From contig BTUM01000004.1 in assembly GCA_045863235.1 (NCBI GenBank), positions 88,621 to 152,620 of the forward strand: 64,000 nt of DNA, in the 5' to 3' direction. The notes under the pieces are model-generated. The model saw nothing but the letters and a program-made list of their open reading frames with translations. It searched no databases and had not been told where the DNA came from. Origin of the DNA: Candidatus Xenobia bacterium (lineage in GTDB: Bacteria > Vulcanimicrobiota > Xenobia > Xenobiales > QWHO01). Positions 21,668 to 47,541 of this stretch are shown here, one piece after another. Numbering within the stretch: the first letter of the stretch is position 1; each line of letters starts with the position of its first letter. The translations under genes were made by a program, and so were the position numbers.

Positions 21668-22612
21668 TTACGAAACGGGGGTCTGCAAGAGCTCGAGGCT
21701 CTTCTCCAGGCTGGCCACGTCGGCCACGTTGGCGGTACGCACCTCCTTGGAGATCTTCTTGACCATGCCGCACAGGGCCGAGCCGGGGCCGACCTCCACG
21801 AAGGTGTCGATTCCGGCTGCAATCATGGTCCGCACCGAGTCCTCCCACAGCACGCGCGAGACGATCTGGAGCTTGAGGGCATGACGCAGCTCCTCGCCCG
21901 TGGTAACGGGCTGAGCGCTGTAGTTGGCGACCAGCGGCACGGCCGGGTCGGCGAAGCTGTGCCCATCCAGGTCCACCGCCAGACGCCCGGCAGCGGGCTG
22001 CATCAGCGAAGAGTGAAAAGCCCCGCTCACGGCCAACGGCATCACCCGGCGAGCGCCAAATTCCGAAGCCCGCTCGCGGGCTGCGGCCACACCCGCGGGC
22101 GAGCCCGAGAGCACGATCTGTCCTGGACAGTTCAAATTGGCCACTTCCACGACTCCGGCGGCTGAGACGGCCTGGCATAGAGCCTCCGCCTGGGCCAGCT
22201 CAATGCCCAGCAGCGCCGCCATGGTGCCAGGAAGCTCCTGGCCCGCCGCCTGCATGTGCTGACCGCGCTTTCGCACCAACATGATTGCGTCAGCCGGGGA
22301 AACCGCCCCGCAAGCCGCCAGGGCAGCATACTCGCCCACGCTGTGGCCGGCCACCATGGCAGGCGAGAGTCCGCGCTCGCGCAACACCGCCAGCGCAGCC
22401 AGGCTGTGAGCCACGATGGCCGGCTGGGTGTGCTCGGTCTGCTTGAGTTGCTCTTCCGGACCCTCGGCCATCAACTGCGAGAGAGGATAGCCCAGCCGCT
22501 GATCGGCCTCCTCGAGCACGGCGCGAGCGGCCGGGAAGGCAGCCGCCAGGTCGACGCCCATGCCGACGTATTGAGCTCCCTGACCGGGAAACACGAACGC
22601 TATGCGGGACAT
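21668..22612 (-). CDS. fabD: Malonyl CoA-ACP transacylase
   Basis: ATG at M142 of the track ORF. The product starts [19 protein letters not shown] and has the active site [14 protein letters not shown]. Confidence 0.9.
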
Positions 22613-23619
22613 AATGCCTCCTTCTTTCCCCAGCGCATGGCCACGGCTCCCCAGGAGAGCCCGCCGCCAAAGCCGACCAGCACGATCAGATCGCCATCTT
22701 TTACCCGGCCCTGCTCGCGTGCCTCCGACAGAGCCAGCGGGATGGAGCCGCAGCTGGTATTGCCAAAGCGGTCCACGTTCACGAAGACGCGCTCCATCGG
22801 CACGCCCAACCGGCGGGCGGCAGCGTCGATGATGCGCACATTGGCCTGGTGAGGGATGAACAGGTCCACGTCGTCGGGGGTGAGGCCGGCTTTGGAAACC
22901 GCGGCAGCAGCCGCCTCCCCGATGACCGAGACGGCGAATTTGAAGACCTCCTTGCCGTGCATCTGCAGGCAAAACTCCGACTTGGGAACGCCCGGCGTGC
23001 CGCCCGGAATGCGCCCTCCACCGGCCGGAACGCACAGGCTGTCTCCCCCCGAGCCATCGGCCCCGAGGTGGATCGAGAGCACGCCCTGTCCCTCCCCCAC
23101 CGGACCCAGCACCACCGCCCCCGCGCCGTCACCGAAGAGCACGCAGGTTCCGCGATCTTGCCAGTTCATCACGCGGGTCATGGTGTCAGCCCCGACCACC
23201 AGGACGTAGTCGAAGGCACCGGTACGCACGAACTGACAGCCCACCGCCATGCTGTAGGCAAAGCCCGAGCAGGCCACGTTCAAGTCGAATGCTCCCGCAT
23301 TGGTCGCCCCCAACCGGTGCTGCACCAGGCAGGCGGTGGAAGGCAGCATGGTGTCGGGGGTCATCGTGCCCACGATGATCAGACCGATCTGCTCGGGGGA
23401 GACCCCGGCGTCGGCCAGCGCCAGCAAGCTGGCCTCGACTGCGAGATCAGAGGCACAGACTTCAGGCTCGGCCATGCGTCGCTCGCGGATGCCTGTACGC
23501 GAGCGAATCCACTCATCGGTCGTGTCGAGAGTGGACTCCAGCTCCTGGTTGGTCACGATTCGGGGAGGCGCAAAATGCCCCAGCCCCACCACGCCCACCG
23601 GGCGTAGCGCGCGAGTCAC
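22600..23619 (-). CDS. fabH: 3-oxoacyl-[ACP] synthase III
   Basis: 339 aa. Active site CSGF (DLNVACSGFAYSMAVG), plus HQANVRII and the GFGGGLSWGA tail. It overlaps the fabD start by 13 nt. Confidence 0.9.
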   Translation of the reverse strand: MTRALRPVGVVGLGHFAPPRIVTNQELESTLDTTDEWIRSRTGIRERRMAEPEVCASDLAVEASLLALADAGVSPEQIGLIIVGTMTPDTMLPSTACLVQHRLGATNAGAFDLNVACSGFAYSMAVGCQFVRTGAFDYVLVVGADTMTRVMNWQDRGTCVLFGDGAGAVVLGPVGEGQGVLSIHLGADGSGGDSLCVPAGGGRIPGGTPGVPKSEFCLQMHGKEVFKFAVSVIGEAAAAAVSKAGLTPDDVDLFIPHQANVRIIDAAARRLGVPMERVFVNVDRFGNTSCGSIPLALSEAREQGRVKDGDLIVLVGFGGGLSWGAVAMRWGKKEALCPA

Positions 23620-25763: not shown

Positions 25764-27185
25764 GTGAACATTGCGTTAAAATGCCAGGCAAGAAACGGGA
25801 ACAATGCCCCCGAGGTGGAACCTGAGCCGTTGAAGATGGAGGAGGACCGCCAGAAAAAGCTCGAGGGGCTGCTGCGCAAAGCACGTCAGCGGATCCAGGA
25901 GCAGACCGCCGAGATCGCCCGCCTGCAAGAGCAGCTCCAGAGCCAGCAGCCGAGCGGCGGCGACCCCGAGCGCATCGCACGTTTGGAAGAGACCTGCGTC
26001 AAGGCCCGGACCCGCCTCAAGCAACTGGTAGGCCGGCTCGAGAAGCGGGAGAGCGAGCTCGAGCAGGCTCAAACCCGCATCAAGACGCTGGAAGCATCCC
26101 GCGGCGAAGGCAAGCGAGCGCCCGAGGATCAAGACCTGGCCCGCCAACTGGCCCTGGCCCAGGCCCGCATCAAGAAGCTGGAAGCGTCCCGGGCCCGTGT
26201 CAAGGAGCTGGAAGAGCAGAACGCCGACCTGGCTCGCCAGCTGGCTACAGCCAGAGCCCGCACCAGGAAGCCAGAAGCATCCGGTGGTGAGGAAAAGCAG
26301 ACCGGAGACCTGGCCAGTGCCCGTGCCCGCATCGAGGAGCTGGAAGCTGAGGCCCAGGAGCTGGCCGAAGCCCGCCTCCAGGAGCTGGAGGCGCAGGCCC
26401 AGGAACTGGCCCAAGCCAGGGCCCGCATCGAAGAGCTCGAAGCCCAGGCCGGCGGCGAAATTCTGGAATCCTGGGAAGGCACCGACTCGCTCGGCGACCT
26501 GGCCCAGGCTCTGGATGAGCTGGCCAGCGCCCGGGCCCGCATCGAGGAGTTGGAGTCAGCCCCCCGCGAGGAGGGCGATCTGGGCCAGATGCAACAGCAA
26601 CTGGCCCGAGCCCGGGTCCGCATCGAAGCGCTGGAGGCCCGCGAGCAAGATCTGGCCGACGCTTGCCAGGATCTGGTCGAGGCCAGAAAACGCATCGCCG
26701 AGTTGGAAGGACAGGCCGACCTGGAGCTGACCCGAGAGCTGGCCAGCGCTCGGGCTCGCATCGCCGAACTGGAAGGCCAGAGCCAGCAGGGCTCGGAGGT
26801 ACAAGCCCTGGAACAGCTCATCAACTGGCGCGACTCCGAGATCGCCGAGCTGAAGACCGAACTGGAGCGAGCGCGCATCGAGGCTCCCCTGCCAGCTGGC
26901 AGCCTCGACTCAGCGCGACTCAATGAGTTACTCGGACAACTCGAGGCAGCTCGGCAGGCCGCTTCCGACAACCGCGCCGCCCTGGAAGCAGCCACGGTGC
27001 GAGCCGCTGCCAACGAGCACGAGCTGCGCAACAAGTTGACTCAGCTGCAGACCGAGAGCCGGGCCCGGCTGGAGAAGGAAATGGAGCAGAACGATCTGTG
27101 CGTCGCCCGCCTCGAGCAAGAAATCAAAGAGCGCGACAGGCGCCTGGCCGAGCTGGAGCGGAAGCTGGCCAATCCGACAACCTGA
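25764..27185 (+). CDS. Coiled-coil protein with degenerate tandem repeats (A[RQ]ARIEELE...)
   Basis: Heptad-rich and almost entirely predicted helix. The repeated peptide units are ARARIEELEAEAQELAEARLQELEAQAQELAQARARIEELEAQ... with matching nucleotide repeats at about 26290-26460. The start is uncertain (GTG at 25764 or ATG at 25836). Confidence 0.5.
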   Translation: MNIALKCQARNGNNAPEVEPEPLKMEEDRQKKLEGLLRKARQRIQEQTAEIARLQEQLQSQQPSGGDPERIARLEETCVKARTRLKQLVGRLEKRESELEQAQTRIKTLEASRGEGKRAPEDQDLARQLALAQARIKKLEASRARVKELEEQNADLARQLATARARTRKPEASGGEEKQTGDLASARARIEELEAEAQELAEARLQELEAQAQELAQARARIEELEAQAGGEILESWEGTDSLGDLAQALDELASARARIEELESAPREEGDLGQMQQQLARARVRIEALEAREQDLADACQDLVEARKRIAELEGQADLELTRELASARARIAELEGQSQQGSEVQALEQLINWRDSEIAELKTELERARIEAPLPAGSLDSARLNELLGQLEAARQAASDNRAALEAATVRAAANEHELRNKLTQLQTESRARLEKEMEQNDLCVARLEQEIKERDRRLAELERKLANPTT

Positions 27186-27192
27186 CCGAGCC

Positions 27193-27525
27193 TCAGTCAG
27201 CCAGGATCTTCTGCAACTCCCAGCGATCCAGCCACATGCCCCGGCAGGTGGGGCACACATCCACCTGGGTGGAGCGCCATTCCCACTCCTTCATGACGAC
27301 GTGGCAGCGTGGGCACTTGCGCTGGCCGGGGGGAACCGTCTTGCGCGAGTCATCGAAGGCCAGCGGTTGGAGAGCGTTCTTGGGCAGCGAGGCCAGAGTG
27401 ACCAGCAGCTCCGGCTCACCGTCGTCGAACCAGAGCCCGTCGCACAGCTCGCACTCGTCGAGTACCAGGTCGCCCAATCGAACCTCGCGCAGAGGCACCA
27501 GGCAGGTGGGGCACTCGATGTTCAT
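27193..27525 (-). CDS. Zinc-ribbon protein (TFIIB-type, COG3809-like), last gene of the flotillin operon
   Basis: MNIECPTCLVPL...CELCDGLWFD and a second ribbon CPRCHVVM...CPTCRGMW. Its start overlaps the stop of the giant ATPase gene (ATGA). Confidence 0.65.
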   Translation of the reverse strand: MNIECPTCLVPLREVRLGDLVLDECELCDGLWFDDGEPELLVTLASLPKNALQPLAFDDSRKTVPPGQRKCPRCHVVMKEWEWRSTQVDVCPTCRGMWLDRWELQKILAD

Positions 27526-30500
27526 TCAGGCGACTTCCTGGGAGTTTTGGCTTTGGAGGCAGCCACCTCGGGAGGCGGCTCCTCCAGCGGGCTGAGCGCC
27601 TCCACGCACTCGGTCAGGTTGGTGGCCGCCATCAGGCCGTCGAAGACGCGCACCAGCACCGGATCCATCACCAGAGCCTTGGATTTGGGCCCGCGCACCA
27701 GCTGAGCCAGGGCCTTGAGCTGGGGCACGACGCGCACGAACGAGTCCAGGGCCCCCGGGCCGAGGTTGAGCTGGGGCACCACCTCGGGCGCCAGAACCAC
27801 GGGTTGAGAGGAGGCCACGCCCGCCACGGGAGCCGAAGCCGCCGGCCGCTCGGCCAGCCGGGCCAGAGCCTCGCTCATTTTGTCCAGCACCGGGGAGAGG
27901 TCCACGGGAGCAGCAGGGGCGGCGGCCGCCGCCGGGGGAGCCGAGGAGGCCAGCCGGTTCAAGGACTGCCCCAGCTTCTCCAGCACCGGACCCATGTCCA
28001 CCTGGGCCGGGCGCTGCTCCGCCAGCTTCTCCAGCAGGCCCGACACCGGAGCCGGTTTCTCGCTGGCATACTCGATGCTCTGGGAGATGTCGCCCAGCTT
28101 CTCGGCCAGCACGCTGAGCAAGTTCGAGATGCGCACGGCCGGGTCGTCGTCCTTGCCGCCGGTCATCTGGCGGCGCTGGTAACCGCGCTTGATCTCGTCC
28201 CAGCGGGCCAGTTGCTCGGGACTCTGGCGGCCACGCAGCTCGGCCAGCTTGAGCAGGTTCTGCTCGGCCCCCGTGGTCAGGGTCTGGGACTCGCCCTGGT
28301 AGTGGTCGTCCACCAGGCGCTCGAGCTCGTCCTCGTTCATCACCGACGAGACCTTCTCGGCCAGCTTGTTCATGTTGCGGTAGCTGCCCTGCAGCTTGAA
28401 GGCCGGCTCGGTGCGATAGGCGTCGTCCATGCTGGCGGACAGGATGTACTGCTTGTTGATACGCAGCAGCACGGCCTGGATCTTGAGCAGCTTGGTCAGC
28501 ACCGAGCGTAGCTCTTCCAGCTCGACCGGCGAATAGGAATGGCTGAGCTCGCTGGGGGGGATCATCTCCCCCTGGGCCATGCGCACCAGCTTGTACACGT
28601 CCTCGGGCTCACGCCCCGAAAGCGGTGCCAGCACGGGGTTGGAGGTCAGAGCGTTCTCCAGGTAGCTCAGCTCGAACAGCTCCTCGCGACCCGACAGCAC
28701 GTCGCCCAGGTTGTAGGTGTCGGCGCGGTTGGCCAGCATGTCGGGGATCTGAAAGCGCGCTCCCGACTCGGTGTAAGGGTTGCCGGCCATGCAGACGCAG
28801 AAGCGCTTGCCACGCAGGTCATAGGTGCGTGTGCGACCCAGCCAGACGCCCTCGATCTTGCGCTGGGCGTCGCACAGCGAGATGAACTTCTGCAAGAACT
28901 CGGGATTGGTGTGCTGGATGTCGTCGATGTAGAGCAGCACGTTGTTGCCCATCTCCAGGCCGAAGTTGACCTTCTCGACCTCCTGGCGGGCGGTCACGTT
29001 GGGGGCCTCGTTGGGGTCGAGCGAGCTGACCGCATGGCCCAGCGCCGGCCCGTTCACCTTGACGAAAATGAGGCCCAGCCGGTTGGCGATGTACTCCATC
29101 AGGGTGGTCTTGCCGTAGCCAGGGGGCGAGATCAGCAAGAGCATGCCCATCAGGTCGGTCCGCTTGGTCTCGCCTAGCGAGCCGATCTGCTTGGCCAGGT
29201 TCTCGCCGATGAGGGGCAGGTAGACGTCGTTGATGAGCTTGTTGCGCACGAAGGCGCTCATCACTTTGGGCGTGTATTCGTCCATCCGAAGGCGCGCACG
29301 CTCGCGGGCCAGCACGCCCAGCCGCTTCTCCTGATACGCCCGAAAACCGGGCACGCGCTGGCTGCGGAAGCCCCCCAGCCGGGTCAAGAACTCGTCCAGG
29401 CGAAGCTGCATGACCCGGTTCTGGATGCGCGCGTGCTGGCCCAGCAGGCCCTGAACCGTCGCCGTGGTGGCGGCGCTGACGGTCTCTCGCTCCAGGCCCG
29501 GGGTCAGCAAGAGCACGGCCATCTCTTCTTGCACGTGCTCGGCCCGGCCGGCCTCCTTGAGCCGACCGACGAAGGCTCGCACCCAGGAGAGGGCCAGCTC
29601 GTAGCGGCGGGCAGGATCGGCCTGCAGGGCGACCAGTTGCTCGCTCAGAGCGGTGTAGAGGCGCTGGCCTTCCAGGGCCTTGATGAAGGCGTCGCGCAGG
29701 GCCGCCGCGTCGCCGCTCAGGATGAAGCGGGGCTGCGGCCTGGCCAGCTCGAGCAAGAGGTAGCTGCCTGCCTGCTCGGCTTCCTGAGGCGAGAGCTCGA
29801 GCTTGTGCAGCACGCACAGCTCGCCGATGCGCTCGCCCAGCTCGCGGGCCAGCTTCTCCTCGGCCTCGCTGGGCCCGAACATCTTGCGCATCAAGGCCAG
29901 ACTCTGGGCCTGGCGATGCCAGTGCTCGCCTTCGGCGGCCTGGTTGCTCCAGAAGTAGACGCCGGCCGCCCGGGCGGCCGGCGAGAAGCGCAGCAGGCCG
30001 GCTGAGCTGTAGAGGTAGAGCAAGCTCTCCAGAATCAGGGCCGCGTCGTGGTCGTGAATACCGCGCTCGTAGCCCTCGTCGTAGCGCTCGGCCGCCACCC
30101 CCCGCACCAGCTCGAGCAGCCCCGGGTGCACGTCGCCGTCGGGCCGGGTGGCCCCCGAGCGCAGCGTGTCGTAGAGCTTGCTCATCGAGCCCTTCTCGGC
30201 CTGGCTGAGGATGCTGAAAGCCAGATACTCGCCCCGGTAGACCTGCTCCGTCTCGCTGACCAGCTGCTGCTCCCAGAACTCGCGGGTGGACTCGAAGTCG
30301 CTGTCATGCAGGCTCTGGTAGAAGTCGGTGCCGGTGATGTGCAGGTGCATCACCCCTTCGCGCGGCACCATGGTCAGCTCGACCGCCTCGGTATTGACCG
30401 AGAACTTGTGCCGACCCAGCCGGATGACGTTGGCGCCCTCCTCGTAGATCTCGGTCTTGTCTCGCAGGGTCCGGGTGGACTCCTGGCGGGCCATCTTGAG

Positions 30501-33020
30501 GCGCGAGGCCAGCTCGTCGGCCTTAACCGGATCGCCCAGCTCGCGCAGCTTCTCCTCGATGTCGCGCACCTTCATCACCATCGGGTCGCTGGCGAAGTAG
30601 GTGTTCAGATCGTCAGGCGAGGTCATGGTGCCCGAGCGGCGCACGATGCCCTCCAGAATGCGGTCGGCCGCTCCGATCAGTTGCTGGGCTCGGCGCTGAC
30701 GCTGATCCAACAGCTGCTGGCGCTTGGTGGAGAGGGTCTTGTAGACGTCCTCGCGCTTGGTGGTCAGCTCGCCCATGAACTGCTCGTACTCTCCGAAGCG
30801 AGCCTCGAGCTCCTCGAGCTGCAGCATCAGGCGTGAGAGGGCCTGATCGCACTTTTCGGGCGAGTCGGCCAGGTTGATGGCGCTGGTGACGCTCTGGCCG
30901 AAGAGCTGGAACTGCACCCCGAACTCGGCCACCGACTCCTTCTCGCCCAGCTCCTTGCGGCGGGAAGCCATGAGGGCCCGCACCCGGTTGACCTGGCCGA
31001 GTACTTCGGCGATGCGCTCGAGAATCTGGGTGCGCACGGTGGCATCCTCGATCTTGATGCTGCCCAGCACCTCGGTGAGCAGCTCCAGCCCACTCCCGAT
31101 CTTCTCCAGCTCTTCCACCAGAGGCACCAGCTCGGTGACCTTGGCCACCTTCTCCAGCCCTGAGCCCAGCTCCTCAACCCGCTTGACATAGGGGGCGAAG
31201 GCCTGCTCACCCAGCAGGAACTGAACCGCTCTGGCGCTGATCTGATCGTAATAGCCGATGGCCTCTTGCTCGAGCCGGTTCAGCTCGGCCAGGTCAGCAT
31301 AGCGCATCTCCTTGAGGGTGATCAGATGCCCACGCTGGCGGCGCAGCGAGCCCAGCGCTTCCACATAGGAGTCCACGCTGGTCCAGTCTTCCGGGCGCAG
31401 CGACTTGACCAGGTCGAGCATGGTCTGCTGGGCCTCGCGCAAGGCTTTGAGCGCCTGGCGGCGCAGGGTCTCGACTTTGTCGAACTCCTCCAGCACCAGC
31501 TTGCCGGTCTTGCCGATCTCCTTGAGCAGGGCCAGCACGTTGCCCGACTCCTCGTGGCCCAGCCAGTGGTAGAAGTCCTCGCAGCGGGCCACGGAGGCGA
31601 TCAGGTCCTCGTAGACGGTGTAGCTCGGCCTCTGCTCGTTGACCCGACGGGCGATGGAGAGGCAGTCGGAGATTCCCCGCACGAGATCGGCGTTACCGAT
31701 CTTCTCGAGGTAGCTGCCTGTCTTGCTCACCGCGCTGGCGGCCACGTCGTCGCGCAGGAAGGGGGTGCGCCAGATCTGCATCGGATGCACCCGGGCCGGC
31801 TCCTCGTTCGCCATGCGGAAGACGACGAGCAGGCCATCGGGGTAAAGGCAGTAGCCGTGGCAGTGGATGGGGGGAGCTACCTCCTTGCGGATCAGGTTGT
31901 AGCTCATCAGCGCCGTGTGGCCTTTGTCGAGATGATGGAAGGAGTAGAGAACGTCCTCCCCGTTGGGCGAGCGGATGGCCTTTTCGAGGATCATCCCGTC
32001 AAAGGAGCCCTCGAAGGTGCGCAGGGTTCCCTCCTGCAGGTAGAAGCCGCCTGGGAAGACGATGCCGTGGTCTTCAGGGAGTTGCACGCAGGCCTGCCCG
32101 ATCGCATCGATGCGGTGGACTTCCTTGGTGCGGGTGTTGAAGACCAGGTAACGCCAGACTTGCTCGCGATAGGGCAGGATCTTGAGCAAGATGAGCACGC
32201 CCACTTTGGCATACAGGATCTGAGCGTCCTGCAGCGCCTGGTTGGGATCGTCCACCTTCTCGGAGTAGATCCCCTGGCCGTCCTCGGTGTTGTTCTCGAT
32301 CTTGACGGTCAGGTCGCCCCCCACCGTCTCCACGAACACCTCGTCTAAGATGTTGACGTGGGGGTGGCGCCCGGTCACATGCTGCTCGCGGCTGGTGACC
32401 GTCCACTCGAAGTCGTGGGAGTGAGGGAAAGTATTGTCCTGCTCGCCGCGATTGTCGACGTACTCGGCCTTGCCATCGGGGGAGACCTTCCAGCGCAGAA
32501 CCCGCACGTCGGTGATCTGGCTGCCAATCACGAACACCGCCAGCACCTTGCCCAGAATCTGGCGAACATGCAGCATGCGGGCGTTCTTGTAGTATTTGAA
32601 GAGCTCCTTGAAGTCGCGCTCGAGCAGAGGGTGGTTGAGCATGGAGCCGGGCGCGTCGGGCGCTACCGGCACGAAGTCGTAGCCGCCCTCTTCGGTTCTG
32701 ACGAAGTCGTAGAGCGAGAGCACGTCGGGCAGCGGTGTCTCGGCCTTGCGACCGTACTGGACCTCGTAGCCCACCAGCAGCTGGTTGCCCACCGAGACGA
32801 TGTCGCGCGGCAGGCAGTTCTGCTCGGTGCGGATCTTCTCGTTGCCCACCACAGCCATCTCCATGCCCCCGAACAGAGCCACGCGTTTGGAGTTGAGCTC
32901 CTCCACGCGGTTCTTGAGGACTTTGGCCTGCTCCACCAGGCGGGCGCGCAGAATCTCGTAGGCGCCCTGCTCGATCTGCGGCGGAGCCTCAGGTGGGGTG
33001 GTGGTGACCTCTTCCGCCAT
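27522..33020 (-). CDS. Giant (1831 aa) AAA+-type P-loop ATPase, flotillin-associated, function unknown
   Basis: It starts 3 nt after the flotillin stop. The ATPase core sits near residue 1290: Walker A ISPPGYGKTTLMEYIA, Walker B NVLLYIDDIQH, followed by ...CMAGNPYTE.... It has long N-terminal and coiled-coil regions. Codon usage and composition are consistent with neighbouring genes. Confidence 0.7.
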   Translation of the reverse strand: MAEEVTTTPPEAPPQIEQGAYEILRARLVEQAKVLKNRVEELNSKRVALFGGMEMAVVGNEKIRTEQNCLPRDIVSVGNQLLVGYEVQYGRKAETPLPDVLSLYDFVRTEEGGYDFVPVAPDAPGSMLNHPLLERDFKELFKYYKNARMLHVRQILGKVLAVFVIGSQITDVRVLRWKVSPDGKAEYVDNRGEQDNTFPHSHDFEWTVTSREQHVTGRHPHVNILDEVFVETVGGDLTVKIENNTEDGQGIYSEKVDDPNQALQDAQILYAKVGVLILLKILPYREQVWRYLVFNTRTKEVHRIDAIGQACVQLPEDHGIVFPGGFYLQEGTLRTFEGSFDGMILEKAIRSPNGEDVLYSFHHLDKGHTALMSYNLIRKEVAPPIHCHGYCLYPDGLLVVFRMANEEPARVHPMQIWRTPFLRDDVAASAVSKTGSYLEKIGNADLVRGISDCLSIARRVNEQRPSYTVYEDLIASVARCEDFYHWLGHEESGNVLALLKEIGKTGKLVLEEFDKVETLRRQALKALREAQQTMLDLVKSLRPEDWTSVDSYVEALGSLRRQRGHLITLKEMRYADLAELNRLEQEAIGYYDQISARAVQFLLGEQAFAPYVKRVEELGSGLEKVAKVTELVPLVEELEKIGSGLELLTEVLGSIKIEDATVRTQILERIAEVLGQVNRVRALMASRRKELGEKESVAEFGVQFQLFGQSVTSAINLADSPEKCDQALSRLMLQLEELEARFGEYEQFMGELTTKREDVYKTLSTKRQQLLDQRQRRAQQLIGAADRILEGIVRRSGTMTSPDDLNTYFASDPMVMKVRDIEEKLRELGDPVKADELASRLKMARQESTRTLRDKTEIYEEGANVIRLGRHKFSVNTEAVELTMVPREGVMHLHITGTDFYQSLHDSDFESTREFWEQQLVSETEQVYRGEYLAFSILSQAEKGSMSKLYDTLRSGATRPDGDVHPGLLELVRGVAAERYDEGYERGIHDHDAALILESLLYLYSSAGLLRFSPAARAAGVYFWSNQAAEGEHWHRQAQSLALMRKMFGPSEAEEKLARELGERIGELCVLHKLELSPQEAEQAGSYLLLELARPQPRFILSGDAAALRDAFIKALEGQRLYTALSEQLVALQADPARRYELALSWVRAFVGRLKEAGRAEHVQEEMAVLLLTPGLERETVSAATTATVQGLLGQHARIQNRVMQLRLDEFLTRLGGFRSQRVPGFRAYQEKRLGVLARERARLRMDEYTPKVMSAFVRNKLINDVYLPLIGENLAKQIGSLGETKRTDLMGMLLLISPPGYGKTTLMEYIANRLGLIFVKVNGPALGHAVSSLDPNEAPNVTARQEVEKVNFGLEMGNNVLLYIDDIQHTNPEFLQKFISLCDAQRKIEGVWLGRTRTYDLRGKRFCVCMAGNPYTESGARFQIPDMLANRADTYNLGDVLSGREELFELSYLENALTSNPVLAPLSGREPEDVYKLVRMAQGEMIPPSELSHSYSPVELEELRSVLTKLLKIQAVLLRINKQYILSASMDDAYRTEPAFKLQGSYRNMNKLAEKVSSVMNEDELERLVDDHYQGESQTLTTGAEQNLLKLAELRGRQSPEQLARWDEIKRGYQRRQMTGGKDDDPAVRISNLLSVLAEKLGDISQSIEYASEKPAPVSGLLEKLAEQRPAQVDMGPVLEKLGQSLNRLASSAPPAAAAAPAAPVDLSPVLDKMSEALARLAERPAASAPVAGVASSQPVVLAPEVVPQLNLGPGALDSFVRVVPQLKALAQLVRGPKSKALVMDPVLVRVFDGLMAATNLTECVEALSPLEEPPPEVAASKAKTPRKSPE

Positions 33021-33023
33021 CGA

Positions 33024-35198
33024 TCAGCCCTGAGGCGGGGCCGGACGGGGAGCGCGCGGCGCCACCGGGGCCGCCGGGGCGGCCGGAGGCAGAGCCTCCA
33101 TGCCCAGGCTGCGGGCCAGCTCCATCAGCTTGGCCTGGTCGGTGCCCCCGCTTTTCTTGATGAGCGAAGCCAGCAGCGAGGACACGCTCAGGTTCTTGAG
33201 GTCCTCCGAGCTCATCGAGGGGTTGGACAGGATGTCCTTGAGGTCCTTGGCCAGACTCCTCTCGCCGTTCATGTAGTCGCCCAGCATGGCCTTGGCGGCG
33301 TCAGAGTGCTGCATGAAGCGGTCCATGGACTTACTCATCGAGATGGCCCCGAAGATGCGGTCGAGCATGGCCCCGTCGCCGCCCACGATGTCGATCTTGG
33401 CCGACTTGAAGACCTCGGCCATGACCTTGGCCTGGGCCTCGGCCAGCTCTTTCTGGGTCTTGAGCGACTCCAGCGCGATGATGCGCTGGTTCTCGAGCTC
33501 GAGGCGATACTCTTCGTGGCGCCGCGAGACGTCGTCTAAGGCCTTCATGGCCTTGGCCTTCTCGGACAAACCGGCCGCCTCGGCCAGCAGCTTCTTCTGG
33601 ATGGCCTGGGCGTCGGCCTCGGCCCGGGCGGCGGCCACAGAGGCTTCGGCCATGCCCACTTTGTGGCGCGACTCAGCTTCGGCTTCGGCCTGGGCCTTCT
33701 TGATGGAGGCCTCCACCATTCCCAGCTTCTCGTTGGCCGGCGCCTGAGCTTCCTTGACGCGCACCTCGGCCATGCCCTGCTTCTCGAAGGCCAGGGTCTC
33801 GGCTTCCTGAACTTTGGCTTTGGCCAGGCCCTCGGCCGCTCTCTCAGCCTGAACGCCCTCCGACATGCGCACCTTGGCCTGGGCTTCCTTGTCGGCCGCA
33901 GCCAGCTCAGCCTCGGCCAGGGTCAGGCGCTGCTTGGCCGTAAGCCGGGCCACCGCCTCGGCCGCCTCGGCCTGCTTGATCTGCTGGGTGGCCTGCTCCT
34001 CGGCCCTGGCCTCGGCGGCGATCACGACCGAATCCTTGCTGCGCTTGGACTCTTCCTGCACGCGCAGGGTCTTGATGCGCTCTTCTTCCTCGACCACGTT
34101 CTTCTCCACCGCGATACGCTGGCGAATGACCTCCTGAATCTCCTTGCGCTCTTCCTCGAGGGCCTTCTCCTTGGCGATGCGCATCAGCTCGACCTCGCGC
34201 TCTTGCTCGATGGCCTTGAGGTTGATCTCCTTCTGGGCGATCTGCTTCTCGAGGTTGACCACGCGCTGGCGATTGGCGTTGGCCACCTCGATCTCGCGGT
34301 GCTTGTTCTCCTCCATCACCTGGATCTCGCGTTCGGCCTCGATGCGAGCGGCCTCGGCCTTCTTGCGCTCCTCGGCCTGGATTTTGGCGATCTCTGCCTC
34401 GCCCCGGGCGCGAGCCGACTCGACCTCCAGGGTCTGGCGGGTCTGGGCGTCGGCCTGCAGGCGATCCTGCTCCATGATGATGGCGTTGGCCTCGACGTCC
34501 TGGGTCTTGATGCGCTTTTTCTCCTCGTTGAGCAGGTAGTTGGTCTGCACGCGCTGCTCGTGGGTGATCTCGGTGATCTTGCGAATACCCTCGGCGTCCA
34601 TGATGTTGGTCTCATCGAGCGCCGTCAGGGGCGTTTGCTCGAGGTAATCGATGGCCACGTCCTCGAGCACGTAGCCGTTCAGGTCCTCGCCGATGACACC
34701 GCGCACCATGTCGCGAAACTCGGTGCGGCGGGTGTAGAGCTCGGCGAAGTCGTGGCTCTTGCCTGCCGTCTTGAGGGCCTCGGAGAACTTGGCCTCGAAC
34801 AGGTCCTCCAGGGTGCGCGGGTCGGAGGCCCGGGCGCAACCGAGAGACTGGGCCACTTCGAGCACGTCCTCCACGGTCTTGTTGACGCGCACGAAGAACA
34901 TCACGCGGATGTCGGCCCGGATGTTGTCTTTGCAGATCAGGCCCTCTTTACCGCGGCGATCGATGTCGATGGTCTTGACCGAGATATCCATCATCTCTGC
35001 CTTATCGAACAGCGGCATCACCCGGGCGCCGGTAAAGACCACCTGCGGGTCCTTCTGGCCCTTGCGGTTGATGATCAGCGCTTTGCCCTGCTCCACCCGA
35101 ATGTAGAAGCGGGCCTCGGCCAGCGTCCACACCAGCCACAGAAAGAGCAGCGAGCCCACCAGGCCGCCCCCGATGATGAGCATGGTGATCAGTTCCAC
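33024..35198 (-). CDS. Flotillin (SPFH/band-7 domain plus long flotillin helical repeats)
   Basis: N-terminal TM segment MELITMLIIGGGLVGSLLFLWLVW. The SPFH core is ...RVMPLFDKAEMMDISVKTIDI.... An extended EA-repeat coiled coil follows (AEERKKAEAARIEAEREIQ...). Confidence 0.9.
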   Translation of the reverse strand: MELITMLIIGGGLVGSLLFLWLVWTLAEARFYIRVEQGKALIINRKGQKDPQVVFTGARVMPLFDKAEMMDISVKTIDIDRRGKEGLICKDNIRADIRVMFFVRVNKTVEDVLEVAQSLGCARASDPRTLEDLFEAKFSEALKTAGKSHDFAELYTRRTEFRDMVRGVIGEDLNGYVLEDVAIDYLEQTPLTALDETNIMDAEGIRKITEITHEQRVQTNYLLNEEKKRIKTQDVEANAIIMEQDRLQADAQTRQTLEVESARARGEAEIAKIQAEERKKAEAARIEAEREIQVMEENKHREIEVANANRQRVVNLEKQIAQKEINLKAIEQEREVELMRIAKEKALEEERKEIQEVIRQRIAVEKNVVEEEERIKTLRVQEESKRSKDSVVIAAEARAEEQATQQIKQAEAAEAVARLTAKQRLTLAEAELAAADKEAQAKVRMSEGVQAERAAEGLAKAKVQEAETLAFEKQGMAEVRVKEAQAPANEKLGMVEASIKKAQAEAEAESRHKVGMAEASVAAARAEADAQAIQKKLLAEAAGLSEKAKAMKALDDVSRRHEEYRLELENQRIIALESLKTQKELAEAQAKVMAEVFKSAKIDIVGGDGAMLDRIFGAISMSKSMDRFMQHSDAAKAMLGDYMNGERSLAKDLKDILSNPSMSSEDLKNLSVSSLLASLIKKSGGTDQAKLMELARSLGMEALPPAAPAAPVAPRAPRPAPPQG

Positions 35199-35258
35199 GT
35201 CCCCGAACCTCCCTTACCGTCTCGACAAGCATGGATCGCTTCGCGCCACCGCGAAGCC

Positions 35259-35882
35259 TCAACTCTTTCGCCGCGACTTCACCGGGGCGGCCAGGAATAC
35301 CCCCCGCCCCTCGTCATAGTCAAACAGCAGCACATCGCTTCCTGAGGAAAGCTCTTGCTCGGCATACTGCTCGCCGAGCCGCGCCTCGACCAGGATCTTC
35401 CCGCCGTCTCGAAGCTCCACCGCGCCCACGACGCTGGTGAGGCAGCCCGAGCGCACCCGACCGACTTTGCCCACCAGCGAGCGCCTCCGAGTTGCCATCG
35501 GAGCCTCGCGGCGGGGCACCATCCGGCGGGCCAGCCACACGGCCGGCCAGAGCACCCCCAGCAGCACCCCCAGCAAGACCAGGGAGCCCCAACCAGCCGA
35601 AAGGGGCCCTGCCGAGAGCGAGACCAGGCAGGTCGCCCCCCAGCCCAACAGCGCTACCAACGTCAAAACCGGCGCCAGCGGCAGAGCGGCCAGGCCCAGG
35701 TCCTCCAATAGCCGCTCCAGATGAAGGTCATGCTCGAGGAAGTCCGGGATGCCGTTGTGGTCAAGGTCAGCCGCACCAAGCAGGCCACCGAGCAGCACCA
35801 CCATCCAGTACACGAGCAACAGCGCCAGCAGGCCCGAGAAGATCACCGTCGGATAGGTCGTGACCGTCTGGAGAAGCTCCAC
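35259..35882 (-). CDS. NfeD-family membrane protein (flotillin-associated, C-terminal OB-fold)
   Basis: TM segments are followed by the NfeD beta-barrel tail GKVGRVRSGCLTSVVGAVELRDGGKILVEARLGEQYAEQELSSGSDVLLFDYDEGRGVF. It lies 60 nt upstream of flotillin, the canonical NfeD-flotillin arrangement. Confidence 0.75.
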   Translation of the reverse strand: MELLQTVTTYPTVIFSGLLALLLVYWMVVLLGGLLGAADLDHNGIPDFLEHDLHLERLLEDLGLAALPLAPVLTLVALLGWGATCLVSLSAGPLSAGWGSLVLLGVLLGVLWPAVWLARRMVPRREAPMATRRRSLVGKVGRVRSGCLTSVVGAVELRDGGKILVEARLGEQYAEQELSSGSDVLLFDYDEGRGVFLAAPVKSRRKS

Positions 35883-35903
35883 GTCTCACACCTCCCTGTC
35901 TGT

Positions 35904-35921
35904 CTGTGAGCAAACTCACAT
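35904..35921 (-). promoter_or_regulatory. Perfect CRP/FNR-type palindrome TGTGA-N6-TCACA at the NfeD-flotillin operon promoter
   Basis: cTGTGAgcaaacTCACAt is centred about 30 nt upstream of the NfeD start, just before the SD (cagggagg). It is identical to the CRP-family consensus. Coordinates are +/-2 nt. Confidence 0.45.
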
Positions 35922-36104
35922 TCAGTGTATCAGCTCGGTGGTTTCCACCCGGGGAACAGGCCGACGGACGGTTGCCCTTTCGCCTGGTGGCGTGCTCCTC
36001 CTCGCATCCTGCAGATCACTCGATCTGGACTGACGAGAAGGCTCACGAAGTTTCTGGAAGTCGCGCGGGGGGTCCTGTTGAATTTCCTTCTCGCACGGGC
36101 CCTG

Positions 36105-36719
36105 TCACACGCGGTGGAGGCTCCCGGTGTAACTCCAAAGTCGCGACCAGAACGAGATGCGGACCGGACGCTCGGGCCAGAGAAGCCTGACCACCTCGAG
36201 ATCGCTGTCATCGGGCAGGTAGCTCACCACCAACGCAGCAAATGACTCCCCCTCCCGGGCAGTGCGCCAATCGTCCTGGCTGACCCACAAGAGTCCCTCC
36301 TCGCGAAGCAGCTGGCTCTCTTTTGGACGGATGGTCAGCGAGTAGTAGTCGCGGGTGAAGCGGCCTGCGTGCTCGTTCCAATCCTCTTCTTGATGATGCT
36401 CCCTGGCCACCACGATCCCGGACAGCTCGAGGATGCGACATTCGGGCCGCATCGCCGCCGACGCTCGCGCCCGCCTGCACTCGATGATGACCGCCAGGGC
36501 CAACAGACCCAGGCATAGACCCAGGGCAATCCAACCGCCGCGGGAGCCTTCCCGCACCCACTTGAAACCATGAAAGATGCCTGGTCCGAGATACCACAGG
36601 GAGGCGAGGGCTAGAATGAACGTTCCCTGGCGGCCAGAGCGCCGGTCGCAGCCCCTTTGCATGACGCCAGCGGCTCGCTGATGATCGTGGGGAGAAAACA
36701 GGTAGGGCATCCGGGTCAC
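36105..36719 (-). CDS. Hypothetical membrane protein
   Basis: 204 aa. Two hydrophobic segments (FILALASLWYLGPGIF, WIALGLCLGLLALAVII) and a soluble C-terminal half. No recognisable domain. Confidence 0.45.
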   Translation of the reverse strand: MTRMPYLFSPHDHQRAAGVMQRGCDRRSGRQGTFILALASLWYLGPGIFHGFKWVREGSRGGWIALGLCLGLLALAVIIECRRARASAAMRPECRILELSGIVVAREHHQEEDWNEHAGRFTRDYYSLTIRPKESQLLREEGLLWVSQDDWRTAREGESFAALVVSYLPDDSDLEVVRLLWPERPVRISFWSRLWSYTGSLHRV

Positions 36720-36972: not shown

Positions 36973-39369
36973 TCAGGAACGGCGGCGGAGGCGCACGCTG
37001 CCGACCTGGACCGCTCCCGGCTGCTCGACCACGGCTCCCCCCGGGCCGGTCGGAACCCCACCAAAACCTGCCAACACCTGCTGGCGGGCGGCCAGGGCGT
37101 CCATCCCGCCGTCCTGGAGGCCCTTCAGCTGGCGAAAGAGCTCCACAGCCTGGTCTTGCTTTTCGACCCCGACCAGGTCGAGCAAGTAACGGAAGTCCGC
37201 CATCCCTTCTCCGCGCGAGATCTGGTAGGCGGACAAAGCGGTCTCCAGAGTGGTGCCGCCTTGCTGGCAATCGAGCACCTGCCGCCAGGCCTCTTCGGGA
37301 GAGGTCACAAAGGCCGTCAGAACCGGGTGCACCTGGGCCACCCGGGTCATCGTGCGCAACTCGTCGAGCAACTCTCGCTCCCAGTCCGCAGCGTGGGCCC
37401 GATAGGCCTGCTCGAGAGGCTCGTGCGACAACCCTCCCGCGGTCGAAAGTCGGACGGCCACGGGGAGACACTCCGAGCGCTCAGCCGGGGGGGAGTCAGC
37501 TCGCCCGAACGGCTCGAGCTGCCGCTCGAGCAAGGCGACCCCCAGGTGGTCCCAGAGAAACTCGGCCGCCACTCGCTTTCCCAGGAGCAAGGCCAGGGCA
37601 TCGGGCGCCTGGGCGAGCATGGAGCGATCACGGCAGGCCTCAAAGAGCGCCTCCACCACTTCGGTGGCTTTCTCGGGAGTGAGCTGATCGCTCGGCGGCA
37701 GATTGGCCAGCAGAGCACGAGCCGAGACGGCGGCCTCAGGGTCGGGTCGATAGGCCTTCTGCCAGGCCATCATGGCCGCATCCGCCATCTGGTCGTCCAA
37801 TTCCAGGCCCTGCGACGACTCGAGCAGGCGGGCCACGACCGATCGCTGCTCGTGGCGGCCCAGGGACTGGAGCCTGGCTCCTTCCTGCTCGACGCAGGCC
37901 AGGGCCAGCCAACCCGCCGCCTGACGCGAGCGCGAAGAAAATGCCGCGGTGCCCACCTCGTGGAGCTTGTCGAGCAGGTCGGGGCCGCGCACACCCGGGC
38001 AGCGAAGCAGGGCGGCCAGCTCGTAGAGAGGCGTCAGGTCGTCGGTCACGGGGAGGCGACCCTTCAGCTGCTCGAGGTTCTCGCGCACTACAGGCTCGAG
38101 CTCGCTCACCCGCACCTGAAGAGCGTGGGGAGAGAGTGTGCTCAGCGAGCGCACCAGTGCATCCTCGGCTCCCCCCTGCACGTCCTGGAAAGGACCGCGC
38201 ATGTTGATGCCCAACCCGAACAGGTCGCGGCCGATGGCCAGGCGCTCGGCCATGGGGCCCTCGGCCCCGGCGAGCCGGGTCAGCAGGGCATCCCGCTGGG
38301 GCTCGCGCACCAGCTTGTCCACCTCGTTGCCGAGGTAGTTGCGCTCCTGAAAACGCTCGTTGGTCAAGAGGTCGACCAGCTTCTGCTTGTCGGGCGCCTC
38401 CAAAGGCAAGGAAATGAGCACCGACAGACGGGTGCGATCGACTTTGTCCATGGCCTGGCTGTGCCCGGCGCGAGCGTAGGCAGCCTCGGCGGCCTGCAAG
38501 AGGGCGGCAACCAGCGCCGGCTCCGGCCTGATCAGGCTGTAGTAGGTTTCCAGCCCGTTCCAGCTGCTCATGCCCTTCAGCAGGGCGGTCCGCTCGGAAT
38601 TGGGGTCAGGATCGTGGACCAGGCGGTCCACAAGGGCGGTGGAGAGCGAGACCATCCGGCCCCGGGTGTCGGGCAACTCCTCGCCGGCCAGAGCAGCACG
38701 GTCGGCCTTGCTCAACCCGGCCAGGAACTCGTGCAGGGGCTCGTCCTTGAACAAAGCCGCGGACTCGTCGCCCGGCGCAAAGGGCAGATAGAGCCGGGCC
38801 AACGGGTCGGGGCAGCTGGTTTCGGGCCGACCCAAAGCGAAGTTGGCCGCTCGCGCCACCAGGGGATCGTCTGACTGCGACCAGGCCACCAGAGGAGCCG
38901 CCTCCTCCTCCGAGAGCTGGCTGGCGCGATGGCGCTGCCCAAGCTCGACGAGTCGAGGCAGGATCTCACGGCGCTCAGCCTGACGCAGGCGTCGGGACCA
39001 GTCTTCGGGGGCCGAGGGGTCCTGAATTGCTCCCTCTTCGGACTGCAGCAGCGCTGGGGGAGCCGCGCTCGCGCTGGCCGCGGGCGCGCTCGGAGAGGGC
39101 GCGGCCTTCTCAGGCTTCTCCGCTTTCTGAGGAGCGCAAAGACGGGTCGAGTCGGCCGGTTCTGGAGGGTCGGGGGGCGATGCCGTCAAGGCGGCCGGGG
39201 GCGGCTGCGCGGTGGCTGGCAGGCCTGTGATTGTGACCCCCTGAATGATCATCGCCACTTGTTTCTGGGCGAGGGATTGCTGTCCCTCTGCTGGCTGCCT
39301 GCAACGCCAGGAAGGCGGCGTTGATCGCTTCCGCCAGAGACAAGCCGCCGGGCAGGAGCCCGCCCGCAA
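36973..39369 (-). CDS. Large hypothetical protein (about 760-798 aa)
   Basis: Long Leu/Ala-rich ORF with regular D/E/W content. A likely start is the ATG at 39252 (MIIQGVTITGLPATAQ...). It is divergent from the dihydropyrimidinase gene and has no recognisable domain. Confidence 0.45.
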   Translation of the reverse strand: MRAGSCPAACLWRKRSTPPSWRCRQPAEGQQSLAQKQVAMIIQGVTITGLPATAQPPPAALTASPPDPPEPADSTRLCAPQKAEKPEKAAPSPSAPAASASAAPPALLQSEEGAIQDPSAPEDWSRRLRQAERREILPRLVELGQRHRASQLSEEEAAPLVAWSQSDDPLVARAANFALGRPETSCPDPLARLYLPFAPGDESAALFKDEPLHEFLAGLSKADRAALAGEELPDTRGRMVSLSTALVDRLVHDPDPNSERTALLKGMSSWNGLETYYSLIRPEPALVAALLQAAEAAYARAGHSQAMDKVDRTRLSVLISLPLEAPDKQKLVDLLTNERFQERNYLGNEVDKLVREPQRDALLTRLAGAEGPMAERLAIGRDLFGLGINMRGPFQDVQGGAEDALVRSLSTLSPHALQVRVSELEPVVRENLEQLKGRLPVTDDLTPLYELAALLRCPGVRGPDLLDKLHEVGTAAFSSRSRQAAGWLALACVEQEGARLQSLGRHEQRSVVARLLESSQGLELDDQMADAAMMAWQKAYRPDPEAAVSARALLANLPPSDQLTPEKATEVVEALFEACRDRSMLAQAPDALALLLGKRVAAEFLWDHLGVALLERQLEPFGRADSPPAERSECLPVAVRLSTAGGLSHEPLEQAYRAHAADWERELLDELRTMTRVAQVHPVLTAFVTSPEEAWRQVLDCQQGGTTLETALSAYQISRGEGMADFRYLLDLVGVEKQDQAVELFRQLKGLQDGGMDALAARQQVLAGFGGVPTGPGGAVVEQPGAVQVGSVRLRRRS

Positions 39370-47376: not shown

Positions 47377-47452
47377 CGCGCTCGGAGATTCTCGCCGGAG
47401 GGGTGGATTTCCGCCTGGCACGGCCAAGTCGAGAACGGAACTGGCGTTAGAG

Positions 47453-47494
47453 CGTTCTGTGAGGCTTTCACGGAGGCGAAACTCCTGCCGAACA
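47453..47494 (+). repeat. Copy A of a repeated ~42-nt intergenic motif (gcgttctgtgaNNNctttcacggaggcgaaactcctgccgaaca)
   Basis: gcgttctgtgaggctttcacggaggcgaaactcctgccgaaca lies about 50 nt upstream of the ATG at 47542. It is near-identical to the copy at about 61036-61079, and a partial copy ctttcacggaggcga is at about 49402-49416. Confidence 0.5.
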
Positions 47495-47541
47495 ACGAGG
47501 CGGTGAGGGAGGGACGTGCCCACCGGCGAACCAGACGATCG

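Follow-up and report, generated by a model that had tools for sequence, protein, structure and literature searches.

A YqiJ–flotillin–giant AAA+ ATPase operon in Candidatus Xenobia: conserved synteny, structural outline and a lineage-specific zinc-ribbon gene

Gene order in which an NfeD-like gene precedes a flotillin gene is known from yqiJ–yqiK of E. coli and yuaF–floT of B. subtilis, where YqiJ and YuaF are the NfeD-like partners, with an oligonucleotide/oligosaccharide-binding (OB) fold, of YqiK and FloT, respectively (PMC2636767). A longer arrangement was described by Ravi et al. (mSystems 2024; PMC11237479): a YqiJ/YuaF gene is followed by a gene for a protein combining a transmembrane segment, Band-7, a coiled coil and flotillin, and then by one for a protein combining a beta-propeller, a coiled coil and AAA+. 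The YqiJ/YuaF protein has three transmembrane segments, and the operon also includes a CesT/Tir–PspA pair and sometimes an HKD phospholipase D; abbreviated operons which lack PspA are widespread, and a chaperone or remodelling role was proposed for the operon from gene context (PMC11237479). Here we analyze a locus of this kind from Candidatus Xenobia bacterium, situated in a stretch of 64,000 nucleotides (assembly GCA_045863235.1, contig BTUM01000004.1, positions 88,621 to 152,620 of the forward strand), which we call the window and to which coordinates refer unless another locus is named. The operon consists of four genes on the minus strand, encoding a YqiJ/YuaF-type protein (gene 1), a YqiK-type flotillin (gene 2), a giant AAA+ ATPase (gene 3, hereafter the giant) and a double zinc-ribbon protein (gene 4). 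We show that the first three genes, the triad, are a conserved unit, and we favor, with a probability of about one half, the reading that the giant is a cytoplasmic, membrane-associated remodelling ATPase which works with a flotillin scaffold in the handling of envelope stress or in membrane maintenance.

The triad has the same gene order as the E. coli and B. subtilis pairs, and YqiK and YqiJ are homologous to the products of genes 2 and 1. In E. coli, however, no giant ATPase follows yqiK, and the window flotillin is ~170 residues longer than those of the E. coli and B. subtilis pairs, with the Pfam NfeD and Flot models unmatched. Compared with the operon of Ravi et al. (PMC11237479), the order of the three core genes and the domain architectures are the same, including those of supplementary Table S3, and the window adds a translationally coupled double zinc-ribbon gene which that paper does not report. 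The system is not new, since both the PspA-linked and the abbreviated forms of the operon are already in that paper, there as a contextual prediction without structure or experiment (PMC11237479). Beyond it we found no paper which mentions the giant family.

All four open reading frames (ORFs) were confirmed on the minus strand at the positions first reported, with a G+C content at third codon positions (GC3) of 0.82-0.90 in all four frames, as high as in genuine genes of this genome. Gene 1 (35259..35882, 207 aa, assigned by hydropathy and profile comparison) is separated by 60 nt from gene 2 (33024..35198, 724 aa, assigned by Band_7 and YqiK homology), whose GTG start is preceded by GGGAGG. 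The junction of flotillin and giant reads TGA-TCG-ATG, which leaves a gap of 3 nt before gene 3 (27522..33020, 1832 aa, assigned by PF12458, PF25472 and AAA), and the stop codon of the giant shares the 4 nt ATGA, seen in GAATGAAC, with the start of gene 4 (27193..27525, 110 aa, assigned by two PF13453 matches). The tight four-gene operon proposed in a preliminary description of this locus is thus borne out by every junction read from the DNA; the existence and position of the giant also stand, and its length is corrected from 1831 to 1832 aa.

A pattern scan with one genome per species detected the giant in at least 571 species, so that the arrangement cannot be regarded as unusual or rare, as was initially thought. 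Neighborhoods were analyzed at 80 loci, from Myxococcota, Actinomycetota, Gamma- and Betaproteobacteria, Acidobacteriota, Planctomycetota, a metagenome-assembled genome (MAG) of Clostridia and others, with calls made by tblastn and ORF clustering; in three of the 80 the upstream sequence is shorter than 320 nt. Each of the 77 loci whose flank is long enough has an almost full-length flotillin homologue of 42-55% identity 5' of the giant, which it directly precedes in 75, and order and strand are constant. A YqiJ-like gene is found upstream of flotillin in 69 of the 80 loci. In reverse look-ups, with the flotillin homologues P0143 and P0213 as starting points, a DUF3686 giant stood immediately downstream of each, and at least 18 flotillin matches are on contigs equal in size to those of giant matches. 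Pairwise identities of flotillin and of giant in 70 loci are correlated with r = 0.95, a value as high as which was reached in none of 999 Mantel permutations, and the mean identities across loci are 56% for flotillin and 54% for the giant. Flotillin and giant are transmitted together and diverge equally slowly, and the YqiJ-like gene, flotillin and giant are inherited as a unit across phyla. The coupling of flotillin and giant, at first proposed from a single locus, is a conserved linkage by the 77 loci, by both reverse look-ups and by the correlation of identities. An explanation by adjacency without a functional link, in which the gene of a large ATPase merely stands beside a flotillin operon, is contradicted by the same constancy of order and strand in 77 of 77 loci across phyla, by the spacings of 3 nt and -4 nt in the window and by the correlated identity matrices; it is extremely improbable and, as far as comparative genomics can do so, refuted.

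By hydropathy, the protein of gene 1 possesses three hydrophobic segments (residues 6-41, 58-91 and 92-119); it has an acidic loop, an Arg-rich stretch after the three transmembrane segments and a C-terminal beta-rich (OB-like) domain. Pairwise BLAST against YqiJ was not significant and only profile comparison succeeded: an alignment of 30 members of the gene 1 family was matched to E. coli YqiJ (DUF1449) by hhalign with a probability of 91.5% (E 8.8e-7, 132 columns), and the match spans the transmembrane segments and the C-terminal beta domain. Neither Pfam nor NCBIfam recognised anything in gene 1 when its full length was scanned. Pfam YqiJ_N was matched by one of the 30 family members and Pfam NfeD (PF01957) by none, the window protein having no NfeD match at E <= 10. 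The name NfeD, under which gene 1 was first reported, therefore holds in the broad sense of the YqiJ profile match and not in the sense of the Pfam family.

The flotillin is composed of a transmembrane segment (residues 1-27), which is its single hydrophobic segment and is followed by basic residues, an SPFH domain (34-186), a long, heptad-like coiled coil rich in Glu, Ala and Lys (~200-600) and a C-terminal region which ends in a Pro-rich tail. In the full-length protein no Band_7 was found by the Pfam scan (E <= 10) and nothing by NCBIfam, and residues 1-234 alone matched Band_7 (PF01145) with E 1.1e-11 and 45.6 bits (cut-off 23.6). BLASTP aligns the protein with E. coli YqiK at 30% identity over 440 aa (E 1e-36), and its homologues are annotated as flotillin family/YqiK. 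Band_7, YqiK homology and the N-terminal anchor with coiled coil together sustain the identification of gene 2 as a flotillin. The C-terminal Flot domain (PF15975) had no Pfam match at E <= 10, either in the last 134 residues or in the full-length flotillin, and a sequence search of the PDB with the flotillin gave no match. Because Band_7 appears only with the coiled coil removed, and because precomputed Pfam domains are missing from most homologues in the protein database, this clade of flotillins is under-annotated. Hydropathy detected no transmembrane segment in the giant or in the zinc-ribbon protein, and from this, from the placement of the transmembrane segments and from the positive residues which follow them, it can be concluded that all soluble parts would be able to meet in the cytoplasm.

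The giant is 100% identical to the NCBI protein AMXMBFR33_09030 and has more than 5798 homologues, with 51-60% identity across phyla. In Pfam it matches DUF3686 (PF12458, E 4e-191), DUF7902 (PF25472, E 1e-28) and AAA (E 1e-6); searches with five sub-regions gave nothing further, and a PDB sequence search matched only ~40 residues around Walker A. Its matches are thus confined to DUF and AAA models and, in the PDB, to the P-loop, and no characterised family was recognised, as had been supposed. Two AlphaFold2 models were built from 68-sequence alignments, with predicted local distance difference test (pLDDT) values of 83.7 and 86.3, and were compared by Foldseek, a step which the preliminary description had proposed and which outlined a propeller, helices, a domain without known relatives in our searches (the orphan domain) and a MoxR-like AAA+ fold. 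On the minus strand and from the N-terminus, a predicted helix (residues 20-50) is followed by a beta-propeller of ~26 strands (56-418; 31767..32855; model m3ccc21b789fe, pLDDT ~90) and by a long helical, coiled-coil region (424-861; 30438..31751; assigned by DSSP on the model), which contains DUF7902 at residues 606-690. The propeller forms 723 clusters at 50% identity among 1.84 billion representatives, is N-terminal in every one, and the proteins which bear it are 1590-2036 aa long where complete. Its Foldseek matches in the PDB are IFT-A, Nup, the clathrin terminal domain and PON1; a coat-like kinship (propeller and solenoid, as in IFT-A, Nup and clathrin) was set aside as generic at template modelling scores of 0.07-0.13.

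The orphan domain (866-1030; 29931..30425), a small beta sheet with helices, is strongly conserved, its invariant columns being taken from alignments of 68 and of 11 sequences; in the models a small beta unit occupies residues 866-903 and a helical domain residues 907-1250. Invariant are H871, E982, G983, Y984, R986, H989, D990 and D992, the last seven within EGYxRGxHDxD (982-992), and W916, R1011 and R1017 are nearly so. It has no Pfam match, and a PDB profile search with residues 858-1035 was empty. The domain could be a catalytic or ligand-binding site. The AAA+ core (~1260-1460; 28641..29243) comes next and is followed in the models by a lid and a helical C-terminal domain, to residue ~1655, and by a low-complexity, Pro/Ala-rich tail (1656-1832; 27525..28055), disordered by its low pLDDT from ~1655 and variable in alignments. 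In the tail the amphipathic motif LxP[YV]LxxLxxxLxxL has a strict copy at residue 1708 and looser ones at ~1661 and ~1677, and of 15 distant giant homologues 10 have LxPxLxxLxxxLxxL in this region; the motif may be a short peptide which binds a partner or the membrane.

Walker A (SPPGYGKT, 1298-1305) and Walker B (VLLYIDD, 1361-1367; window 28920-28940) were located where an AAA+ core had been reported, near residue 1290. Both motifs, the sensor-1 residue N1414 and R1432 are invariant in 68 homologues. Walker A, Walker B, sensor-1, an arginine after beta4-alpha4 and an alpha/beta core with lid, features of AAA+ membership, are all present, and the module is predicted to be catalytically intact. 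The model possesses a strongly basic pre-sensor-1 beta-hairpin (1388-1401) and no strand pair between beta2 (1318-1323) and alpha2 (1342-1357), i.e. no helix-2 insert; because the hairpin is present and the insert absent, we place the module in the pre-sensor-1-hairpin superclade and in no named family. Its nearest folds are NorQ and CbbQ (MoxR), midasin, ClpA/B and dynein, with Lon also among the structural neighbors, and in the models it appears closest, at fold level only, to the MoxR-type NorQ/CbbQ. Identity of the core to the MoxR family (NorQ, CbbQ, RavA) and to midasin/dynein modules is ~15%. The giant differs from MoxR proteins in the absence of the helix-2 insert hairpin, in a Walker B motif ending in D-D, in having no VWA gene among its conserved neighbor clusters and in its size, which is about six times theirs, with a propeller and a coiled coil added. 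Membership in the MoxR family was rejected on two of these grounds, the missing insert hairpin and the missing VWA/MIDAS partner gene.

PGAP names the giant "DNA repair ATPase", and PF12458 is described in Pfam as an 'ATPase involved in DNA repair'. A motor of DNA repair or recombination, with the zinc ribbon as its nucleic-acid-binding partner, could be read from this description, from sub-threshold RuvB_N matches, from RuvB and MCM among the best Foldseek matches of the AAA+ module, from the basic pre-sensor-1 hairpin and from the Joint Genome Institute (JGI) label of zinc-ribbon homologues, 'Zn-finger nucleic acid-binding protein'. Against it stand the membrane partners, which no genome lacks, and the RuvB score, which falls far short of the cut-off. 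RuvB identity was rejected, as the NCBIfam equivalog gave 21.7 bits against a cut-off of 282, only the P-loop aligns and ruvA/ruvC neighbors are missing. We consider such a motor very unlikely, and the database name 'DNA repair ATPase' is unsupported and most likely a misnomer.

PspA is a bacterial membrane-repair protein of the ESCRT-III type. In several lineages the triad is fused into operons with PspA: a DUF2170 (YjfI-like)–PspA_IM30 pair lies directly upstream of the triad in 15 of the 80 loci, all proteobacterial, and a phospholipase D (PLD)-family gene (HKD) lies downstream of it in nine, the DUF2170, PspA and PLD extensions being carried by Pseudomonas and Lysobacter loci. On the well-studied megaplasmid pQBR103 of P. 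fluorescens SBW25 (NC_009444.1 85112-97641; our locus L092) a PspA–polyamine operon stands ahead of the triad, and the same-strand block is composed of PspA–rhomboid–DUF2491–DUF350–DUF1190–glutathionylspermidine synthase–YqiJ-like–SPFH–giant. In a metagenomic locus (L091, 15557-18044) a PspA_IM30 gene and a gene for a 579-aa classical AAA protein come after the giant; this AAA protein may be the PspA-associated two-AAA-domain protein of Ravi et al. Plasmids with the giant are rare (13 of 72,556 records) and are mostly megaplasmids, chromids or mislabelled chromosomes.

The PLD gene attached in nine loci and the patchy distribution, resembling horizontal transfer and including megaplasmids such as pQBR103, would also fit a function in anti-phage defense or abortive infection, in which the propeller ATPase senses infection and its flotillin or PLD partners damage the membrane. 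Weak PADLOC matches to IetA, in the Walker A region only, point in the same direction. However, PADLOC 2.0 gives just IetA and mad8 at ~30 Walker A residues with E 5e-4 or worse, and no giant homologue was found in 50,697 phage records (tblastn) or in IMG/VR viral contigs. Conservation is also very high for a defense gene (51-60% identity, 723 clusters), the neighbors in the window are housekeeping genes (FabH, YceD, MutS2, RF3), and the recurrent partner is PspA and not nucleases or toxins. A role in defense is for these reasons quite unlikely.

It is known that in B. subtilis the SPFH protein YdjI/SamI recruits PspA to the membrane (PMC8581546; also a preprint), and according to a 2025 review a Vps4-like ATPase appears to be absent in bacteria (PMC7619361). 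A functional analogy of the giant with Vps4/ESCRT-III is possible, that of a dedicated AAA+ protein which recycles a membrane-bound polymer, the extended operons containing PspA of the ESCRT-III superfamily. Assignment of the giant to Vps4 or to the classical-clade AAA proteins was rejected: it is without an MIT domain, has the pre-sensor-1 hairpin and differs in architecture.

From these results the explanation favored at the outset, a membrane-associated remodelling ATPase with a flotillin scaffold, can be drawn as follows. Flotillin and the YqiJ-like protein would build a scaffold or cage of the SPFH type at the cytoplasmic side of the membrane. The giant would oligomerise via its AAA+ module, by analogy possibly into a hexamer of ~1.2 MDa, would dock on the scaffold or on clients through propeller and coiled coil, and would use ATP to remodel assemblies (assemble, open or disassemble them) during membrane stress. 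In favor of this explanation, the nearest folds (NorQ, CbbQ, midasin, ClpA/B and dynein) are those of ATPases which remodel proteins or act as motors. A more specific version, which we put forward tentatively and hold to be less probable, is that the giant is the first dedicated ATP-driven remodeller of the flotillin/SPFH cage, and also of PspA polymers where pspA is fused to the operon, i.e. an analogue of Vps4 or NSF; a MoxR-like core would then be combined with a 'coat-like' arm of beta-propeller and helices which reads the state of the scaffold.

Several observations weigh against a remodelling ATPase on a flotillin scaffold. Walker B is D-D and not D-E in 68 of 68 homologues, and the pore-loop-1 position (1324-1341; 28998-29051; PALGHAVSSLDPNEAPNV) is highly conserved and contains no aromatic residue; because of these two features the AAA+ module may act as a switch or slow ATPase and not as a threading unfoldase. 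The very basic hairpin, together with the RuvB and MCM matches, makes nucleic-acid binding by the giant possible. Unrelated genes stand between flotillin and giant in two loci (L013 and L062), and physical contact of the two proteins is a suggestion drawn from gene order and co-inheritance. In the window itself pspA and CesT are absent from the whole 64 kb, and since the CesT/Tir–PspA pair is missing within this distance the locus represents the 'abbreviated' form. Finally, we found no literature on DUF3686, PF12458, DUF7902/PF25472 or on flotillin in combination with a DNA repair ATPase.

The absence of an aromatic residue at pore loop 1 bears as well on a client-processing machine comparable to HflK/C–FtsH, in which an AAA+ machine, corralled by a flotillin cage, would pull out or unfold damaged proteins of the membrane and would not remodel the scaffold itself. 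No pairing of SPFH and AAA+ proteins other than HflK/C–FtsH is established (general knowledge; cited in PMC13086221), and the likeness is real in so far as there, too, an AAA+ machine at the inner membrane is linked both genetically and functionally with an SPFH scaffold; the conserved synteny fits this explanation equally well, and ClpA, ClpB and Lon are among the structural neighbors of the giant. FtsH, however, is a membrane-integral protease of the classical clade, whereas the giant is soluble, with neither a transmembrane segment nor a protease domain, and HflK/C faces the periplasm, whereas the partners in the window face the cytoplasm. The aromatic-hydrophobic-Gly motif is missing at the pore-loop-1 position, and the closest folds are MoxR-type and not those of FtsH or Clp, which makes client processing of this kind unlikely.

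The product of the fourth gene is soluble and matches PF13453 twice (E 3e-25), with TFIIB-type ribbons CPTC..CELC and CPRC..CPTC. TFIIB-type identity and the ATGA overlap with the stop of the giant, both noted before, hold true, and its membership in a conserved system does not, as the gene is absent from all 80 loci (tblastn and phmmer); a zinc ribbon as core component was rejected on the same count. In a set of 5.8 billion proteins there are 10 homologues, all from Eremiobacterota-type MAGs and some of them away from the giant. The identical 4-nt overlap of giant and zinc-ribbon gene occurs in two further loci, L081, whose giant is 85% identical, and L088, whose zinc ribbon is 65% identical, and the gene is lacking in a relative from Armatimonadota. 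On the basis of these sequence comparisons, we regard it as a lineage-specific accessory of Eremiobacterota/Xenobia. It would act, being coupled to the operon only in this lineage, as an accessory such as an adaptor or regulator. Two homologues of 52-58% identity stand away from the giant (L085, 10001-10327; L087, 10001-10330), divergent from a FabH-like/MFS block and upstream of a phosphoglycerate mutase (iPGM) gene; FabH of the window (22600-23619) is ~4 kb from the zinc-ribbon gene. Because distant homologues stand beside a FabH-like block and the window FabH is this near, the zinc-ribbon gene may have joined the operon by capture within Xenobia.

The preliminary description compared the locus with pspA–ydjGHI (samGHI) of B. 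subtilis, where an SPFH protein and a double-zinc-ribbon protein are likewise encoded together, and where membrane stress is handled with PspA (PMC11237479; preprint). The resemblance is thematic, an SPFH and a zinc-ribbon protein around PspA, and the gene arrangement is not homologous. YdjG is membrane-anchored and has an NTF2-like domain, and YdjI is an SPFH protein without transmembrane segment and with its own zinc ribbon, whereas the zinc-ribbon protein of the window is soluble, 110 aa long and restricted to one lineage, and its flotillin has a transmembrane segment and no zinc ribbon. The B. subtilis system, which has no giant ATPase, includes YdjH (TPM) and PspA in its core; no PspA or TPM gene was found among the window neighbors of the operon.

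With regard to its surroundings, the operon is preceded by 222 nt (35883..36104, minus strand) without an ORF in a high-GC3 frame, probably the non-coding leader and promoter region of gene 1, with AGGGAGGTG immediately 5' of the GTG start. A scan of 35883..36104 for the sigma-70 consensus detected no promoter, and Rfam, tandem-repeat and promoter/terminator scans across the operon region gave nothing informative. At the other end a convergent coiled-coil gene terminates 8 nt past gene 4. As a non-coding stretch precedes gene 1 and a convergent gene follows gene 4 so closely, the four genes form a bounded unit. The convergent gene (25764-27185, plus strand) contains degenerate repeats of 30 and 45 nt (ARARIEELEAQ type); its product, a coiled-coil protein of 473 aa rich in Glu, Ala, Arg and Leu, has no Pfam match. 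Upstream of the operon on the same strand there are genes for a 204-aa membrane protein (36105-36719, minus) and for a protein of 798 aa (36973-39369, minus), neither with a Pfam match; since in L081, a close relative, their place upstream is taken by an amidohydrolase, both are considered to be outside the conserved unit.

The window is a chromosome fragment with a high GC content (~66%). MutS2 (44782-48021, minus, 1079 aa) has MutS_V, MSSS and Smr domains which start at residue 545, and its long N-terminal half is without domain assignment. A 932-aa protein (49422-52220, minus) is a fusion of a LuxC-type acyl-CoA reductase with an AMP-binding (LuxE-like) enzyme, and a second AMP-binding gene is present at 58537-59814.

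How SPFH/flotillin cages are opened, recycled and coupled to membrane repair is an open question, and the giant, a slowly evolving ATPase of ~200 kDa which at least 571 species carry firmly tied to a flotillin–YqiJ pair and which was repeatedly fused to pspA operons, is a candidate for the missing energy-dependent step. The operon was already known from the computational description of 2024 (PMC11237479); new are the structural outline of the giant, the placement of its AAA+ core near MoxR-type modules, the quantification of synteny and co-inheritance, and the finding that the widespread 'DNA repair ATPase' annotation is unsupported. What the window contributes is a member from Eremiobacterota, in the abbreviated form and with a lineage-specific zinc-ribbon gene. 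The system is also present in the tractable Myxococcus, Streptomyces, Pseudomonas (including pQBR103) and Proteus.

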